A stretch of 64,000 nucleotides of DNA from the NCBI GenBank assembly GCA_963797765.1, contig CAWCQU010000004.1, positions 444,094-508,093 of the forward strand, in the 5' to 3' direction. The translations under genes were made by a program, and so were the position numbers. Under the pieces are notes generated by a model, which saw nothing but the letters and a program-made list of their open reading frames with translations, ran no database searches and was not told where the DNA came from. This document shows positions 11,945 to 53,594 of the stretch, piece by piece. Source of the stretch: an uncultured Acidobacteriota bacterium (GTDB taxonomy: Bacteria > Acidobacteriota > Terriglobia > Acidiferrales > UBA7541). Numbering within the stretch: position 1 is the stretch's first letter; each line of letters begins with the position of its first letter.

Positions 11945-13324
11945 CTAATCCGGCTTGTCTGGTTTGGCCGGCTTTGCAGCCGGAGCCGGAGCGGGCGTAG
12001 GTTCCGGCTTCTGTACAATGCGCATCTGAGTTTCTATCTGTTTTTGGAGGTGCTCCATCTGCTGCGTATAAATTTGCTTCTGCAGTTGCAGGCAGGTGTC
12101 GCTCAGGATCAGCCGGATGTTTCCGGCCACCGTTCGCAGTTTCAGAACTCCACCGCCTCCGTTGAGCAAGCCTTCGGCGTGCACTACGCGGGCGCCGCCT
12201 TCGCTGCCTACGTAACTGATCTTCAAGGGGAATGCCGGATCGGCGATCACATGATGCTCATCGCCCAGTTGAATTTGCGCGTCGATGGTCAGCGGCAGCC
12301 ATTTAGGCAGGTACACCACGATGTCGCCATCGCCCGATTCCAATTCCGACGCACTGGCAAGCTTGGCTTCGGGTACGAACCATGCCGTGATTCCGCCTGT
12401 GCCGGTGGAGGCGCGCACCGGGCTTTGCACTTGCGTCAAGTAGATGCTGCCGTCGCCTGTTTCGAGCTGTGTTGGTCCCGCGAGGCGCGCCACGCGAATC
12501 CCGCCTCCGCCAGTCTGCGCGCGGATTGCGCCCCAGGCTTCGCCCACTTCGATTTGCCCGCCGCTGGTGGTGGCCACAAGTCCCGCGCCTGCGTGTTCCA
12601 GGGATACGTTGCCTCCGCCGGTATCGAGCCGCGCGATTCCGCCAACGGATCCCAGGTGTATATGGCCACCGCCCGTATGCAAGACGGCATTGTGGCCGAT
12701 TTTGCCCACGCTGATGTGTCCGCCGCCGGTGCTGACGGTGAGATCGTCCGTAACGTCTTTTACATGGATATGTCCGCCGCCCGTTTCCAGCCGCGCGCTT
12801 CCGTTCACGTTTCCGATAGTGATATCGCCGCCCGCGGTGGTGAGCAAAACGTGGCCCGACGCGTCTTCCGCGTCGATCGAGCCCGCTCCGGTGTTTACTT
12901 CCAGGCTGTACTTCACCGGAACTGTCACGTCGTAGGTAATCCACAAGTGTTCGACATCTTCGCGCCGCACGGCTTTTCCGTGCATGAGCACGCCATCGGG
13001 CAAATTCGCCACCATCACCAAAAATGTTTTGTTTTCTTTGTTGTTTGCCGGGATGGCTCCGCTTTGATCGGTTTCCACACGCACGCGAAAGCTCACTTCA
13101 TTGGTCTGCTGCATGTGAATATGTACGTCGCCCAGTTCAGTCCCGAGCTTCAGCCGCTGTCCTTCGTGCGCCGCGAGCTTTCCTGTTTTTTCTTCCAGCA
13201 GGCGCCGCTGCGAATTTCCCGGATTCAGCGAGTGGAATTTCTGTTTCCCGAACGCCGCCGGGATCAGCAATCCGCCCGCCGCCAGCGCCGCCGCAATCCA
13301 TCGAATTGGCACACGTCGATTCAT
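11945..13324 (-). CDS. DUF4097-like beta-helical protein with about 10 TGGGHIHV-type repeats, a coiled-coil and a Pro/Ala/Lys-rich tail
   Basis: Repeats such as LTTAGGDITIGNV, LETGGGHIHVKDV, VSTGGGHISVGKI, LHTGGGHIHLGSV, LDTGGGNVSLEHA. Confidence 0.75.
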   Translation of the reverse strand: MNRRVPIRWIAAALAAGGLLIPAAFGKQKFHSLNPGNSQRRLLEEKTGKLAAHEGQRLKLGTELGDVHIHMQQTNEVSFRVRVETDQSGAIPANNKENKTFLVMVANLPDGVLMHGKAVRREDVEHLWITYDVTVPVKYSLEVNTGAGSIDAEDASGHVLLTTAGGDITIGNVNGSARLETGGGHIHVKDVTDDLTVSTGGGHISVGKIGHNAVLHTGGGHIHLGSVGGIARLDTGGGNVSLEHAGAGLVATTSGGQIEVGEAWGAIRAQTGGGGIRVARLAGPTQLETGDGSIYLTQVQSPVRASTGTGGITAWFVPEAKLASASELESGDGDIVVYLPKWLPLTIDAQIQLGDEHHVIADPAFPLKISYVGSEGGARVVHAEGLLNGGGGVLKLRTVAGNIRLILSDTCLQLQKQIYTQQMEHLQKQIETQMRIVQKPEPTPAPAPAAKPAKPDKPD

Positions 13325-17926: not shown

Positions 17927-17986
17927 GTCATTCCGAACGAAGCGCGTAGTTTGCGTCCCGATTGTTTTGATCGGGGCGAGGAATCC
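17927..17986. repeat. REP-like nested stem-loop element, copy A (outer ATTCC/GGAAT, inner CCCGAT-tgttttg-ATCGGGG, then CGAGGAA)
   Basis: Same architecture as copies at 21571-21618, 40136-40176, 50157-50195 and 47456-47489. Confidence 0.5.
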
Positions 17987-18086
17987 AGAATAAATCCCAC
18001 GTGCCTGAGATGTCGGGATTTTCTCCATGCCTCTTCTGGAATGCCATTCCATCGCGGAGCAATTCTTGAATTTTTCCGCAAACTGT

Positions 18087-18105
18087 AAAGCCGGCCCCTA
18101 CATAG
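18087..18105. repeat. 19-nt module TAAAGCCGGCCCCTACATA, matching 50186-50205 exactly and 33487-33504 closely
   Basis: An 18/19-nt identical string sits immediately upstream of rsmD. The same module follows the hairpin repeat at 50157-50195. Confidence 0.45.
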
Positions 18106-28239: not shown

Positions 28240-28257
28240 CTCTTAAACGCAATTTCA

Positions 28258-28290
28258 TGCCGGAACTGAAGCTCCGACCTCCTAAAAACC
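28258..28290. repeat. Conserved motif copy S1: short hairpin plus GAAGCTCCGACCTCCTAAAAACC
   Basis: Shares a 21-nt core with 34612-34632 and 40693-40713. Lies 17 nt downstream of the acyl-CoA dehydrogenase stop on the minus strand. Confidence 0.5.
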
Positions 28291-30230: not shown

Positions 30231-30731
30231 ATGAATGTGGAATTGGTGATTGCTGCGGCTACTGATGAGGAGCGTGAGTGGGCAGCGCGCTTGATGGCGG
30301 GAACTGATCCGTGGATCCGGTTGGGGAGGGATTTGGAGCGGTGCCGAGTGGTTTGCAATGACCGCGAGGATTTATTGTACATCGCACATTTGAAGGATGA
30401 GGCTTGCGGGTTTTTGTTGATGCGGAGGCGCGGGGTGGCGGGGGCTCCTTATATTGTTTCGCTGGCTGTGCGAGAGGATTTGCGGGGGACGGGAGTGGGA
30501 TCGAGGATGCTGGAATTTGCGGAGGATTTTTTTCGGGGGGAGTCGCGGAATATTTTTATTTGCGTGTCTTCGTTCAATGGGAGGGCGCGGGAGTTGTATG
30601 AGCGATTGGGATATTTAGTGGTGGGGGAGTTTAAGGATTACATTGTTGACGGGGAGTCGGAGTTTTTGTTGTGGAAAGGGCTTTACCGCAGAGACGCTGA
30701 GGGCGCGGACGGAAGGAGAACGGGAAGATGA
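30231..30731 (+). CDS. GNAT family N-acetyltransferase with atypical codon usage (G/T-ending codons)
   Basis: Acetyl-CoA binding motif VSLAVREDLRGTGVGSRML. Codons GGG/GTG/TTG/GAG/TTT dominate, unlike the GC3-rich neighbours. Confidence 0.75.
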   Translation: MNVELVIAAATDEEREWAARLMAGTDPWIRLGRDLERCRVVCNDREDLLYIAHLKDEACGFLLMRRRGVAGAPYIVSLAVREDLRGTGVGSRMLEFAEDFFRGESRNIFICVSSFNGRARELYERLGYLVVGEFKDYIVDGESEFLLWKGLYRRDAEGADGRRTGR

Positions 30732-30895
30732 TTCGGGGGGGGCGGAAGAAAAAAAAGAAAGAAAGAAAAGGAACCGGAGAGATTCTTCGGGCCGGTCTTC
30801 GGCCCTCAAAATGACAATGGTGGGATTTTTGCGGGATGCCATTAAGGCTGGGAGTGCCCTTGAGATTGGAGTAGGTGGGACAGCCTAAAGGCCGT

Positions 30896-33329: not shown

Positions 33330-33450
33330 TGGTAATGGTAGTACCAAGATTTGTTACGTAAGTGATTTGTTATGTTTGTGGGATGTTCGTGAAGTAGGGG
33401 GAGTTCGTTTTTACCGCAGAGACGCAGAGGTCGCCGACGGAGAGTGAATG
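33330..33450 (+). pseudogene. Degenerate duplicate of the GNAT gene 3' end, about 110 nt, matching 30620-30725
   Basis: Nucleotide similarity (TTACCGCAGAGACGCAGAGGTCGCCGACGGAG versus TTACCGCAGAGACGCTGAGGGCGCGGACGGAAGG). Translated match ...YVSDLLCLWDVREVGGVRFYRRDAEVADGE versus ...YIVDGESEFLLWKGLYRRDAEGADG. Confidence 0.5.
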
Positions 33451-33454
33451 GAGC

Positions 33455-33505
33455 GCGGGCGAGGCCCTTCGAGGCTCAGGATAGACGGAAGCCGGCTCCT
33501 ACAAC
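33455..33505. repeat. Mosaic repeat module R1 (GGGCGAGGCCCTTCGAGGCTCAGGATAGA ... GGAAGCCGGCTCCTACAA)
   Basis: Related to 39624-39670 and 50115-50205. Overlaps the HIT gene stop codon. Confidence 0.45.
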
Positions 33506-34361: not shown

Positions 34362-34600
34362 TGCTCTCGGCTCCTCGCGAGACTGCGCGGATTAGCGCGC
34401 GAAAATCACCGTTCCGGGCTGGTGCAGAACCGGTGGGGCGATGGACTGCCTGTGCATATCACTAATCTGCCTGCAAGGTAAATGAAATTTACGAGCGGCG
34501 GGTTCCGGCGGCACACAAGGTTGAAGGTGCAAACCGCCGCAACGCTCCTTCTGATCGGAAGCTTCAGGGGCTAAAGCCCGCTTCTCTTGCAAACGCAAAT

Positions 34601-34632
34601 GTCGGAGCTAAAGCTCCGACCCCCTAAGAACC
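34601..34632. repeat. Conserved motif copy S2: GTCGGAGCtaaaGCTCCGAC hairpin plus CCCCTAAGAACC
   Basis: Between rpsA and ihfB. Shares the AAGCTCCGACCCCCTAAGAAC core. Confidence 0.5.
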
Positions 34633-38007: not shown

Positions 38008-38045
38008 TTGAGAAAAAGCACACAGCCAGGAGTGGCTGTGCTACT
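38008..38045 (-). terminator. Rho-independent terminator of the dnaJ-hspR transcript: AGCACAGCCActccTGGCTGTGTGCT then TTTTT, overlapping the hspR stop codon
   Basis: Minus-strand hairpin followed by T5. The same hairpin sequence recurs at 53531-53552. Confidence 0.6.
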
Positions 38046-39623: not shown

Positions 39624-39670
39624 CGGGACGCGGCCCTTCGAAGCTCAGGGTAAACGGGTGGCGCCCCATT
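39624..39670. repeat. Mosaic repeat module R2 (GGGACGCGGCCCTTCGAAGCTCAGGGTAAACGGGTGGCGCCCC) immediately upstream of the dnaJ start
   Basis: 27-nt core shared with 33455-33482; related to 50115-50143. Contains the palindrome CTTCGAAG. Confidence 0.45.
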
Positions 39671-40135: not shown

Positions 40136-40176
40136 GCCGCCCTCCCGACAGAATTCGTCGGGCGAGGAAGGGCAGC
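40136..40176. repeat. REP-like nested stem-loop element, copy G (GCCCT-CCCGACagaattcGTCGGG-CGAGGAAGGGC)
   Basis: Inner 6-bp hairpin plus the CGAGGAA tail; outer GCCCT/AGGGC pairing. Confidence 0.45.
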
Positions 40177-40203
40177 GCTACACGACCCCTATGACTTAGC
40201 AGA

Positions 40204-40649: not shown

Positions 40650-40713
40650 CCGGAGCTTCCCGATCGAACACATCGGGACACAAACCGCGCGGAAGCTCCG
40701 ACCCCCTAAAAAC
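40650..40713. repeat. Conserved motif copy S3: nested hairpin (GGAGCTTCC[CCCGATcgaacacATCGGG]...GGAAGCTCC) plus GACCCCCTAAAAAC
   Basis: Starts 5 nt downstream of the dnaK stop (40718). Confidence 0.5.
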
Positions 40714-40717
40714 GATC

Positions 40718-45007: not shown

Positions 45008-45129
45008 GCCTACCCCGGCTAATCCCGAAGTCTTAATAAGCCATAACCGTGCCGGCCTGAAGGCCGGCGCTACATTGCATTTCCAGTTGATTGCGCGGCG
45101 GAGTAGAATGCCGCGTTCCCTTGGAGGAT

Positions 45130-47399: not shown

Positions 47400-47455
47400 G
47401 GCGAGCCTGAATCGAGGCGGCAGCTGTTCGTGGGGGACATTGAACTCTGGATCCC

Positions 47456-47489
47456 TCGTCCCGGTTAACAACATCGGGACGCAGAAGGC
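47456..47489. repeat. Possible degenerate REP-like copy H (GTCCCGgttaacaacaTCGGGAC-GCAGAAGG)
   Basis: Inner hairpin and a CGCAGAAGG tail that resembles CGAGGAA. Confidence 0.3.
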
Positions 47490-47860
47490 GCGCTGACGCT
47501 CGGGATGACACCATGAAGACATGTGACGCTGCGGATTCACAAGTTCAACGCCTTAACGGGTAATCCGGTTTTCAAAACATGAAAATTTGAATTCGCGCGG
47601 GGATGCGATGCAGTCTTCAAGCCCGCGTATCCAAGGTTTGCAGAGAGCCTTGATCGCCGCGATCCATCGTCGATCGCGGCTTGGCATCCCAACCCAAAGG
47701 CCATCAAGATTGTTTGGGCTAGCGGCACTTCTGGAGTAGTCTCAGGTCGGAAATTCCAGTCCGCCAGCGGATGGGGCAATTGGAACGACTTGTGTCACCG
47801 ATTCCGTGGAACCTCCGACAGGCCCGGTGAGTCTAATCCGAATAAGGATGAATCGAAACA

Positions 47861-49540: not shown

Positions 49541-50142
49541 GCGCTGCTATTTACACCGCGTTTCTGGCACTGGTGGGCGTGGGACGGCTGATCGAGCTGC
49601 GCATTTCGCGGCGAAATCAGCAACGGCTGCTGGAACGCGGTGCGGAACGGGTGGTTGATCCGAATTTCCGGTGGATGGTGGCGCTGCACACAGGAATTCT
49701 GGTATGTGCGGCACTGGAAGTCTGGCTACTGCGCAGGCCGTTCATTCCGGCGCTGGCGGCGAGCATGGCGGTGCTTTTCGTAGCGGCGAACGCGGTGCGC
49801 TGGTGGGTGATTGCAACCCTGGCGGGCCATTGGAATGTGCAGGTGGTGTCGTCCACTCGATTGGGCGTGATTTCGAGTGGACCTTATCGCTGGGTGCGGC
49901 ATCCAAACTATGCGGCTGTTTTTGTGGAAATGATCGCGCTGCCAATGATTTATACGGCCTGGGTGACGGCTTTGTTGGGAGCGATTGCGCATTTATTTGT
50001 GCTGAGGGCGCGGCTGCGGGTGGAGGATGGGGCGCTGCTGGCCGATCCTGCGTATCGCGCCGCGATGGGCGACAAGCCGAGATTTTTCCCTAATTTCTTC
50101 GTGAGCGACAAAAAGGGCGCAGCCCTGCGAGGCTCAGGGTAG
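49531..50142 (+). CDS. ICMT/PEMT-family membrane methyltransferase (SrsB/BpsB-like), translationally coupled to the PKS
   Basis: GPYRWVRHPNY motif, multiple TM helices. Start overlaps the PKS stop (ATGGAAATGA). Confidence 0.8.
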   Translation: MEMSAAIYTAFLALVGVGRLIELRISRRNQQRLLERGAERVVDPNFRWMVALHTGILVCAALEVWLLRRPFIPALAASMAVLFVAANAVRWWVIATLAGHWNVQVVSSTRLGVISSGPYRWVRHPNYAAVFVEMIALPMIYTAWVTALLGAIAHLFVLRARLRVEDGALLADPAYRAAMGDKPRFFPNFFVSDKKGAALRGSG

Positions 50143-50205
50143 AAAGAAAAGGGCGCGGCTCCCCGATAAAATTCATCGGGGGCAGGAAAGCCGGCCCCTA
50201 CATAC
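50115..50205. repeat. Composite repeat: R3 module (GGGCGCAGCCCTGCGAGGCTCAGGGTAGA), then REP-like hairpin copy F (CCCCGATaaaattcATCGGGGG-CAGGAA), then the AAGCCGGCCCCTACATA module
   Basis: Joins in one place the modules that occur separately at 33455-33505, 39624-39670, 17927-17986 and 18087-18105. Confidence 0.5.
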
Positions 50206-53473: not shown

Positions 53474-53562
53474 GGCGGGGGTAGCACAGGCACTCTTGCC
53501 TGTGTAATTGAACACGCGGACAGTAAAACCACACAGCCAGGAGTGGCCGTGCTACTTGAAAA

Positions 53563-53594
53563 GGGCGGAGAGCGATCTCCGCCCCTTTTTTATT
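53563..53594. terminator. Bidirectional rho-independent terminator GGGCGGAGAgcgaTCTCCGCCC then TTTTTTATT, preceded by an AAAA run. Two more hairpins lie upstream (53485-53504, 53531-53552).
   Basis: 9-bp GC stem, T6 run. Lies between convergent genes. Confidence 0.75.

Follow-up and report, generated by a model that had tools for sequence, protein, structure and literature searches.

We analyzed a 64,000-nucleotide window of DNA from an uncultured Acidobacteriota bacterium (contig CAWCQU010000004.1 of assembly GCA_963797765.1, positions 444,094 to 508,093), in which two short strings, R and P, recur between genes. An earlier reading of the sequence alone (the sequence-only reading) took R and P for separate modules that recombine with each other and with a hairpin. 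We found instead that they are the two sides of one GTAG-tagged hairpin and that the modular piece is a 21-nt cassette inside R: because the arms are complementary and covary across copies, R is the tag-distal arm of a GC-rich hairpin followed by the loop cassette, and P is the loop, the tag-proximal arm and CTAC, the complement of the tag. The strings probably represent a family of GTAG-tagged repetitive extragenic palindromes (REPs), of the system formed by REPs and REP-associated tyrosine transposases (RAYTs), in the uncultured acidobacterial order Acidoferrales. In our judgement this GTAG REP/RAYT family is new for the lineage and shows a loop-cassette variation not previously described. 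REP/RAYT systems are known mainly from Proteobacteria and Cyanobacteria, and the published surveys had no canonical GTAG REP system in this abundant uncultured soil lineage.

The GTAG-tagged hairpin and its copies

One genome per GTDB species (596 Gb) was scanned with the pattern GCCCTKCGARGCTCAGGRTARA. At least 117 stretches were found, nearly all in metagenome-assembled genomes (MAGs) labelled Acidoferrum, Acidiferrum, Acidoferrales or Terriglobia; this count runs across species genomes, not within one genome, and by our own estimate a 22-mer with four two-fold positions would match about once by chance in a database of this size. The sequence-only reading had considered that the strings might be confined to the window or be parts of an unannotated gene; they have copies in other genomes, and the elements are intergenic, not coding. 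The related loci (designated by L numbers) were fetched with the cassette pattern and amount to 0.92 Mb. There were 125 pattern matches, 123 of them with enough flank, and 122 distinct copies were aligned. The layout common to the 125 matches is 9 nt before the core that are complementary to a 9-mer a few bases past the core, usually followed by CTAC, as in these copies:

GGGCACGGC + core + cgtGCCGTGCCC + CTAC
GGGCGGGGC + core + caaGCCCCGCCC + CTAC
GGGCGCAGC + core + catGCTGCGCCC + CTAC
GCGGCGGC + core + caaGCCGCCGC + ACTCC

The arms were complementary at 8 to 9 of 9 positions in 41 of 123 copies, against approximately 7 to 8 copies expected with shuffled or swapped partners (anchored 9-nt matching). 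When pairs were counted on the unfiltered, ungapped alignment of the 122 distinct copies, 62% of the helix cells were paired, compared with 52% after shuffling (0 of 500 shuffles attained 62%) and 36% to 47% when slid by 1 to 3 columns, and the covariation score for these copies was 0.249 versus 0.145. They contain 71 distinct arm 9-mers, and two core variants cover 96 of the 122. An exact-run helix search between the R flank and the downstream sequence was dropped as overly stringent, and also because stems common to several copies contaminated its swap control. In canonical copies, the fold has an unpaired GTAG, a 9- to 10-bp stem and a 23-nt loop. At one orthologous site with alignable flanks (L012, 872–937, and L067, 2219–2284) the cassette is identical and the stems differ by two compensated pairs (GGGCACGGC/GCCGTGCCC versus GGGCGGGGC/GCCCCGCCC), which is either compensatory change or conversion to the prevalent stem of each genome.

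The sequence CTAC stands directly past the arm in 68 of the 122 copies, and a looser screen without a control detected one of the six one-substitution variants of CTAC somewhere in the stretch in 22 more. Over all related loci, with the cassette-bearing hairpins excluded, no other 5' foot was as strongly enriched as GTAG next to perfect hairpins with stems of 8 bp or longer (5.3 per 1000 occurrences versus a median of 0.74). TTAC and TGGA also appeared as top hairpin tags and were rejected as artefacts of an N-run in L045. A lenient search for GTAG next to a hairpin in the window alone (1 mismatch, loops of up to 50) did not set GTAG apart from control tags. GTAG is found in the window at 18098–18101, 33499–33502 and 50198–50201, and is lost at 39668. 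On the minus strand P reads GTAG-GGGCCGGC-TT, which is the head of a GTAG-type REP as defined previously (PMC3733652, PMC6006769). Read 5' to 3' on the tag strand, the full element consists of an unpaired GTAG, a GC-rich arm of approximately 9 bp, a 2- to 4-nt loop, the optional cassette and the complementary arm, often trailed by a T-rich tail (GTCTTT). GC-rich stem-loop (about 5 to 13 bp of stem in REPs of this type), unpaired foot (GT[AG]G, 0 to 2 nt 5' of the stem) and dispersed extragenic copies, the hallmarks of GTAG REPs, are thus all present, and within the window the stem is recovered at 50151–50201. Further features shared with the GTAG REPs described elsewhere (Nunvar 2010, PMC2817692; Messing 2012, PMC3479197; Di Nocera 2013, PMC3733652; Quentin 2018, PMC6006769) are the position of the unpaired GTAG directly 5' of a GC-rich stem of 7 to 10 bp, sub-families with compensated stem changes, an occasional overlap with stop codons, and an intergenic location mostly on the 3' sides of genes.

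Cassette-bearing REPs were also seen in MAGs assigned to other phyla (L064, Burkholderiales; L069, Eisenbacteria; L068, L018/L066, L046, L052 and L079). L064 and L069 are identical including their flanks, which suggests mis-binned acidobacterial contigs rather than spread across phyla. Four cassette REPs lie in L113 at 541–1295, three in a tandem array of 129-nt units and the fourth approximately 430 nt further on with the same flanks, a cluster that resembles those near REPtrons (RAYT genes flanked by REPs).

In the window, the sequence-only reading had placed modules at four sites, with sequences and positions that proved accurate. Searched with up to 3 mismatches, the R core CGAGGCTCAGGGTAGA has three matches, all on the plus strand, at 33470, 39639 and 50128 (each with at most 2 mismatches in 16 nt; 0.35 matches expected by chance, and 0 of 100 shuffles attained 3), and these copies, compared as 34-mers, are 79% to 82% identical. 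The P core AAGCCGGCCCCTACA is found with 0 to 1 mismatch in 15 nt at 18088, 33489 and 50188, likewise all on the plus strand, and three more matches with 3 mismatches are at chance level. A wider search of the window detected no additional 21-nt cassette at up to 5 mismatches and, at up to 2 mismatches, one additional match to the P head (GTAGGTTCCGGCTT at 11997, plus strand), which was taken for a chance match. The elements at the four sites are composed as follows, the minus strand being the one on which window elements read GTAG first:

50115–50123, minus strand: tag-distal arm of REP unit 1, GGGCGCAGC on the plus strand (family arm match)
50124–50144, minus strand: variant of the loop cassette, CCTGCGAGGCTCAGGGTAGAA on the plus strand, 3 substitutions from the consensus
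50151–50159, minus strand: tag-distal arm of REP unit 2, GGGCGCGGC (DNA fold, L120 ortholog)
50160–50186, minus strand: nested hairpin cassette, TCCCCGAT-AAAATTC-ATCGGGGG-CAGG (sequence, DNA fold)
50187–50201, minus strand: loop AAA, tag-proximal arm GCCGGCCCC and CTAC, which is the P module; GTAG-GGGCCGGC-TTT on the minus strand
33457–33502, minus strand: complete cassette-bearing REP with decayed arms; arm GGGCGAGGC (33457–33465), cassette CCTTCGAGGCTCAGGATAGAC (33466–33486), loop GGAA, arm GCCGGCTCC (33491–33499), tag CTAC (33499–33502)
39625–39667, minus strand: complete cassette-bearing REP that has lost its tag; arm GGGACGCGGC (39625–39634), cassette CCTTCGAAGCTCAGGGTAAAC (39635–39655), GG, arm GTGGCGCCCC (39658–39667)
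17927–18105, minus strand: composite repeat of approximately 180 nt that aligns with L074, 4430–4640 (minus strand)

The interval 50115–50201 contains two REP units in direct, not alternating, orientation. Unit 1 (50115–50144) is an arm with its cassette, without a partner arm or tag of its own; its arm 9-mer is common to 8 of the 122 related copies and to a canonical TGTAGGGGCGCAGCATG-cassette-GCTGCGCCCC element in L129. Unit 2 starts six bases further on and spans 50151–50201, with 50151–50159 pairing with 50190–50198 around an inner hairpin (DNA fold, −19.9/−20.3 kcal/mol, z −2.3/−2.9). This nested CCCCGAT hairpin occupies the junction at which the 21-nt cassette is found elsewhere, past the tag-distal arm and ahead of the loop, and three more outer palindromes of the window (17957, 40144 and 40659) also enclose a CCCGAT..ATCGGG hairpin. 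The closest relative, L120, contains a plain-loop version of unit 2 (GGGCGCGGC-TGAA-GCCGGCCCC-TAC). The P half at 50187–50201 is orthologous to GAAGCCGTCCCCTACAGAC in L120/L121, where the 3' side is conserved and the 5' side unrelated. In a 63%-identical relative (L122), the spacer between the ICMT-family gene and the FAD gene has 31 nt and no element. In L120 (79% identical), this spacer contains the P half at the position of P in the window, approximately 55 conserved nt and then an additional simple REP that is absent from the window, and the sequence unrelated between the two begins exactly 5' of the P arm.

At 39625, where the sequence-only reading saw R only, the diverged partner arm is kept and only the TAC of the tag is lost. 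At 18088, where it saw P only, the fold analysis likewise found no partner arm for P, but this P half is the end of the 17927–18105 composite. The composite starts with the palindrome GTCATTCCGA..GAGGAATC enclosing the CCCGAT hairpin, ends in a half REP (18086–18101, TAAA-GCCGGCCCC-TAC), and aligns over its final 40 nt or so with L120.

Gene context was taken from Pfam and the deposited gene calls (ENA ERZ25039458 contig_4901, a 940-kb metagenome contig). The final 9 codons of the ICMT-family gene and its TAG stop (50140–50142) come from the R element at 50115, the TAG stop of the minus-strand HIT gene is the CTA at 33499–33501 of the 33457 element, and the stop codon of a RAYT gene in L101 is the TAG of a GTAG tag; the elements thus rewrite gene ends. 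A preference for the GTAG tag as stop codon was considered and rejected as not convincing, since an open frame of 80 codons or more runs in phase with the tag in 18 of 70 copies, versus 22 of 140 control frames. Elements also sit in intercistronic leaders: the 39625 element lies between a 126-aa gene and dnaJ, both on the minus strand, and ends 12 nt from the dnaJ ATG (39613). The P element at 18088 is 15 to 18 nt ahead of the rsmD ATG (18120). All REP-type units of the window except one have the same polarity (CTAC on the plus strand), whatever the direction of the genes; a link to replication direction was considered and set aside because GC skew changes sign within the window (positive from 24 kb onward, negative at 8 to 24 kb). 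Elements of this kind probably break metagenome assemblies: RAYT homologues are mostly found on 1- to 3-kb contigs, and the L120 contig stops in non-coding DNA beside such repeats, 246 nt upstream of the FAD gene.

The 21-nt loop cassette

The cassette reads CCTTCGARGCTCAGGGTAAAC on the CTAC strand and GTTTACCCTGAGCYTCGAAGG on the tag strand. It lies between the tag-distal arm and the original loop, and the long-loop form is longer by exactly 21 nt. Stems without it were found as follows:

L049 and L095: GTAG-GGGCACGGC-at-GCCGTGCCC-gtcttt
L092: GTAG-GGGCGGGGC-tt-GCCCCGCCC
the window: GTAG-CACAGCCA-ctcc-TGGCTGTG

In a sister genome (L130/L131), DnaJ is 94% identical to that of the window and the gene order from dnaK to HIT is the same. 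Downstream of HIT, L130 has TTGTAGGGGCCGGCTTCA-GCCGCGCCCC where the window has TTGTAGGAGCCGGCTTCC-cassette GTCTATCCTGAGCCTCGAAGG-GCCTCGCCC, and upstream of dnaJ it has AGGGCGCAGCCC-GCCGCGCCCTAG where the window has GGGGCGCCACCC-cassette GTTTACCCTGAGCTTCGAAGG-GCCGCGTCCCGCTAG. At two orthologous sites, therefore, the cassette is either there in full or missing in full. Its junctions share at most 1 base, which makes slippage between direct repeats unlikely. No REP was found upstream of dnaJ in the more distant L132, L133 and L134, so that gain and loss of the cassette both fit. Neither target-site duplications nor terminal inverted repeats were found at the two 21-nt indels or at a REP indel (three orthologous sites). 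The same hairpins with and without the cassette, even at orthologous sites of sister genomes, constitute a natural experiment and offer a handle on how RAYTs act on REPs in vivo, that is, on cut sites, joints and the exchange of halves.

Across the related loci the cassette was found in at least 5 stem or tag families, including the CACAG and GGAGCT palindromes, both of which occur cassette-free in the window. One copy (L031) has it flipped with respect to the tag, one (L075) has it inside another cassette, and tandem arrangements occur in L117, L010, L087 and L112. It is possible, though less likely than not, that the 21-nt cassette, and likewise the CCCGAT hairpin, are themselves mobile or exchangeable units put into the loops of existing REPs, or swapped from one loop to another, without target duplication and at one fixed junction, between the loop and the tag-distal arm. 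The recurrence of this junction in at least 5 stem families, the unit-wise presence or absence without flanking direct repeats, and the flipped, self-nested and tandem copies are compatible with such an exchange. If it takes place, REP loops would be landing pads for smaller elements ("Russian-doll" palindromes), which would point to hairpin-loop-directed joining of single-stranded DNA by RAYTs in vivo. Alternatively, repeated precise loss or gene conversion between REP copies may account for the pattern, and the cassette could instead be a conserved motif to which a protein or RNA binds, with the REP as its scaffold. A literature survey, made largely at the level of titles and abstracts, yielded no report of a conserved cassette in REP loops. 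Unlike in the catalogued GTAG REPs, one cassette recurs here in at least 5 stem families, is polymorphic as a unit, and shares its junction with a second hairpin cassette.

RAYT genes of the lineage and competing explanations

A tblastn search with E. coli RayT detected 4 ORFs in the related loci, all of which pass the Pfam cutoff for Y1_Tnp (PF01797). GTAG hairpins flank RAYT genes in L063, L079 and L101, and also in L126 and L129, the latter two found through a protein search. The L101 gene is preceded by hairpin-CTAC units and, 230 nt off, by a cassette-like REP, and is followed by GTAG-hairpin units; as in REPtrons, a Y1/HUH transposase gene is thus flanked by hairpins of inverted orientation. 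Its protein has 427 homologues at E ≤ 1e-20, several of them named RayT by JGI and most of them on 1- to 3-kb contigs. One homologue (P0190, in L129) is encoded on a 1.57-Mb contig of the window's own assembly and flanked by GTAGTGGCGGGTCTTCAGACCCG hairpins. A canonical cassette REP lies 350 nt upstream of it (TGTAGGGGCGCAGCATG-cassette TTTACCCTGAGCCTCGAAGG-GCTGCGCCCC), with the same arm as the 50115 copy of the window. The RAYT-flanking REPs of L101/L126 (GTAGRGGCYGGGCTTYAGCCC) are similar to the P head, and another RAYT homologue is flanked by GTAGAGGCYGGGCTTTAGCCC units similar to P. Because GTAG hairpins flank RAYT genes and GTAG is the top foot when cassette-bearing hairpins are left out, the lineage appears to have bona fide REPtrons. 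A different, longer Y1_Tnp ORF was seen in L055 (2685–3482; Pfam 25 bits), with the text IMENGVP at both ends; it seems to be placed between restriction-modification-like genes, and no GTAG hairpins were seen beside it.

GTAG and a hairpin are required by E. coli TnpA-REP, an enzyme that cleaves at CT dinucleotides and is capable of strand transfer (PMC3479197). By analogy, the elements would be non-autonomous DNA that the RAYT (HUH/Y1) transposases of the lineage cut and rejoin as single-stranded hairpins. Such cutting and rejoining would spread the elements and yield half-element joints, loop cassettes and the gain or loss of REPs, for all of which conversion between copies could be another source. 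New stop codons and hairpins in 3' untranslated or intercistronic regions, such as the dnaJ leader, would be by-products.

Several observations weigh against a RAYT-linked REP family. The mobility is modelled on E. coli TnpA-REP, the only RAYT with known biochemistry (PMC3479197). No RAYT was detected within the window by tblastn with E. coli RayT, none of the best 120 homologues of the L101 protein maps to the contig that contains the window, and the L129 RAYT is tied to the window by a common metagenome assembly, in which it lies on a separate contig. The REPs that flank RAYT genes mostly have plain loops, and their heads (GTAGTGGC..., GTAGAGGC...) are not identical to P; those of L129 (GTAGTGGC) differ from the P of the window (GTAGGGGC). 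The catalogued GTAG REPs have loops of 2 to 20 nt (PMC3733652), unlike the 23-nt loop that the conserved cassette gives. Part of the cassette's uniformity is an ascertainment effect, the loci having been fetched by the cassette pattern. In folding, the copies at 33457 and 39625 do not surpass shuffled sequences (z +0.5 and +0.3), and hence are decayed; the window copies are old, with arms partly decayed and one tag lost. The family also differs from the surveyed GTAG REPs in its acidobacterial host lineage; the 2013 and 2018 surveys had Acidobacteria only with Y1 genes that are associated with terminal inverted repeats or have an atypical CnGA foot (PMC3733652, PMC6006769).

The bacterial interspersed mosaic elements (BIMEs) invoked by the sequence-only reading would consist of R, hairpin and P as independent motifs shuffled into varied orders, like the PU and linker motifs of E. 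coli. What stands of that proposal is that these are REP-class repeats, dispersed and intergenic, whose halves are joined to differing partners: halves occur apart, the R half at 50115 has no partner arm, another left partner adjoins the P half at 18088 and in L074/L120, and REP clusters exist in relatives (the tandem 129-nt units of L113 and the tandem cassettes of L117). What fails is the independence of R and P. They are the two sides of one hairpin whose arms covary family-wide, the P arm varies in sequence along with the R arm and P is thus no fixed motif, and the 39625 copy has its partner arm. The BIME layout of alternating REPs with conserved linkers was found neither at 50115–50201, where the units are direct, nor at 33457 and 39625, which have one hairpin each. 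Like the BIMEs and REP doublets (REPINs) of E. coli, the elements are built from REPs, with clusters and mixed sub-types; unlike them, they are single hairpins or two direct units with no alternating Y/Z layout and no recognizable linker motifs. We consider such a mosaic quite improbable. Still less probable is a conventional miniature inverted-repeat transposable element or insertion sequence with terminal inverted repeats, moved by a DDE transposase, of which the strings would be fragments. The 17927–18105 composite has the size of such an element and recurs in another genome, and acidobacterial Y1 transposases were found with long terminal inverted repeats rather than REPs in earlier surveys (PMC3733652). 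However, the units measure 30 to 55 nt, the orthologous indels bear neither target-site duplications nor terminal inverted repeats, and a GTAG foot with the stem directly after it is a REP signature (PMC6006769), all of which makes this origin extremely unlikely.

The genomic location bears on two explanations that involve function. Intergenic position was found for 99 of 107 classifiable copies, and the eight "genic" ones fall in 5' extensions of ORF calls that are themselves uncertain. Among the intergenic copies, 34 lie between convergent genes and 7 between divergent genes, and the tandem contexts number 32 and 26 for the two orientations. This is the REP pattern of gene 3' sides with promoter regions avoided and no preferred strand; the orientation relative to flanking genes, which the sequence-only reading had proposed to tabulate, thus showed no bias among related copies. 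Hairpins selected by the host as terminators or 3'-end stabilizers of mRNA, spread by duplication or gene conversion without a dedicated transposase, would fit the enrichment downstream of genes and depletion between divergent genes, the T-rich tail past the hairpin on the tag strand (GTCTTT, TGCTTTTT) and the one terminator-like match in scans at four sites (minus strand, 50126–50114). Yet both orientations are equally common and only one puts the T-tail past the stem, the 23-nt loop makes a poor terminator, no terminator-like match was found at 33457 or 39625, and the GTAG foot and the RAYT genes with flanking hairpins of the same kind would be left unexplained; this origin is unlikely. We hold it very unlikely that the elements are a structured, strand-specific RNA (a cis-regulatory leader or small RNA) with a functional 21-nt loop and a stem covarying through selection for RNA folding. 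The stem does covary around a highly uniform loop, some of its changes are compatible with G-U pairs, and one copy precedes the dnaJ start by 12 nt. However, a strand-specific RNA element is argued against by the lack of a preferred strand, of Rfam matches and of promoter-like R sites. At the three R sites, pattern scans for a promoter, a role that the sequence-only reading had proposed to test, detected none of the sigma-70 type; one weak match (18062–18089, minus strand; 9 of 12 positions, 0.2 expected) overlaps the P half at 18088, and no promoter or terminator signal recurs between the four sites. Rfam 15 gave no match at gathering thresholds in the whole window and, around one window copy and one canonical copy, only chance-level hits at E ≤ 10 (E 0.17–9; 10 to 18 bits versus cutoffs of 45 to 81); a tRNA/tmRNA search found nothing. 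In addition, the neighbouring genes are unrelated, and the cassette is dispensable at orthologous sites and flipped relative to the tag in L031. A phage association was rejected, IMG/VR having given a single match.

GTAG-tagged REPs also share traits with two other types of small repeat. Streptococcal BOX elements (boxA-boxB-boxC) are short intergenic repeats that vary by the presence or number of internal modules, which measure 45 to 60 nt and keep a fixed order; they are not known to have a GTAG foot or a RAYT association. As in palindrome-associated transposable elements (PATEs) and IS608-type transposition, the elements offer a hairpin with a 5' guide tetranucleotide for a Y1 HUH enzyme and no target-site duplication; unlike in PATEs derived from IS200/IS605, no insertion sequence ends, TnpB or fixed target tetranucleotide were seen.

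Other repeats in the window

A second REP sub-family, GTAG-CACAGCC-loop-GGCTGTG, is present at 53481–53504 (plus strand), 53532–53555 (minus strand) and 38021–38044 (minus strand). The two copies at 53481–53555 lie in inverted orientation between convergent genes and make up the window's only inverted REP pair, which is REPIN/BIME-like; a bidirectional terminator-like hairpin lies past it (53563–53592). The CACAGCC stem bears the 21-nt cassette in L019, L069 and L108. A palindrome family with the sequence GTCGGAGCT-AA-AGCTCCGAC followed by CCCCTAAGAACC (AGGAGG-like on the other strand) occurs at 28257–28290, 34599–34632 and 40659–40714, the last copy with the CCCGAT hairpin in its loop. Its stems covary in L070/L079, and the GTCGGAGCT stem bears the 21-nt cassette in L033, L050, L059 and L096.

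The repeat TTTACCGCAGAGACGCWGAGG is found at 30682–30723 and at 33410–33451, the second copy directly 5' of the R element at 33457; since cassette REPs in L003, L009, L025 and L041 follow a similar AAGACGCAGCGGCC flank, larger composite units may exist. An outer palindrome GTCATYCCGARCG...CGAGGRATC surrounds CCCGAT..ATCGGG at 17927–17985 (plus strand) and 47446–47510 (minus strand), and in L074 the GTCATYCCGARCG palindrome encloses a different inner hairpin (CCCGC-tcct-GCGGG). GCTAC tags mark two more hairpins, a nested one at 40144–40190 (GCCCT + CCCGACAGAATTCGTCGGG + CGAGGAAGGGC-AGCGCTAC) and a simple REP at 45052–45072 (GCCGGCC-TGAA-GGCCGGC-GCTAC). A long purine run (GGGGGGGCGGAAGAAAAAAAAGAAAGAAAGAAAAGG) occupies 30732–30775, in the spacer upstream of an SPFH-domain gene.

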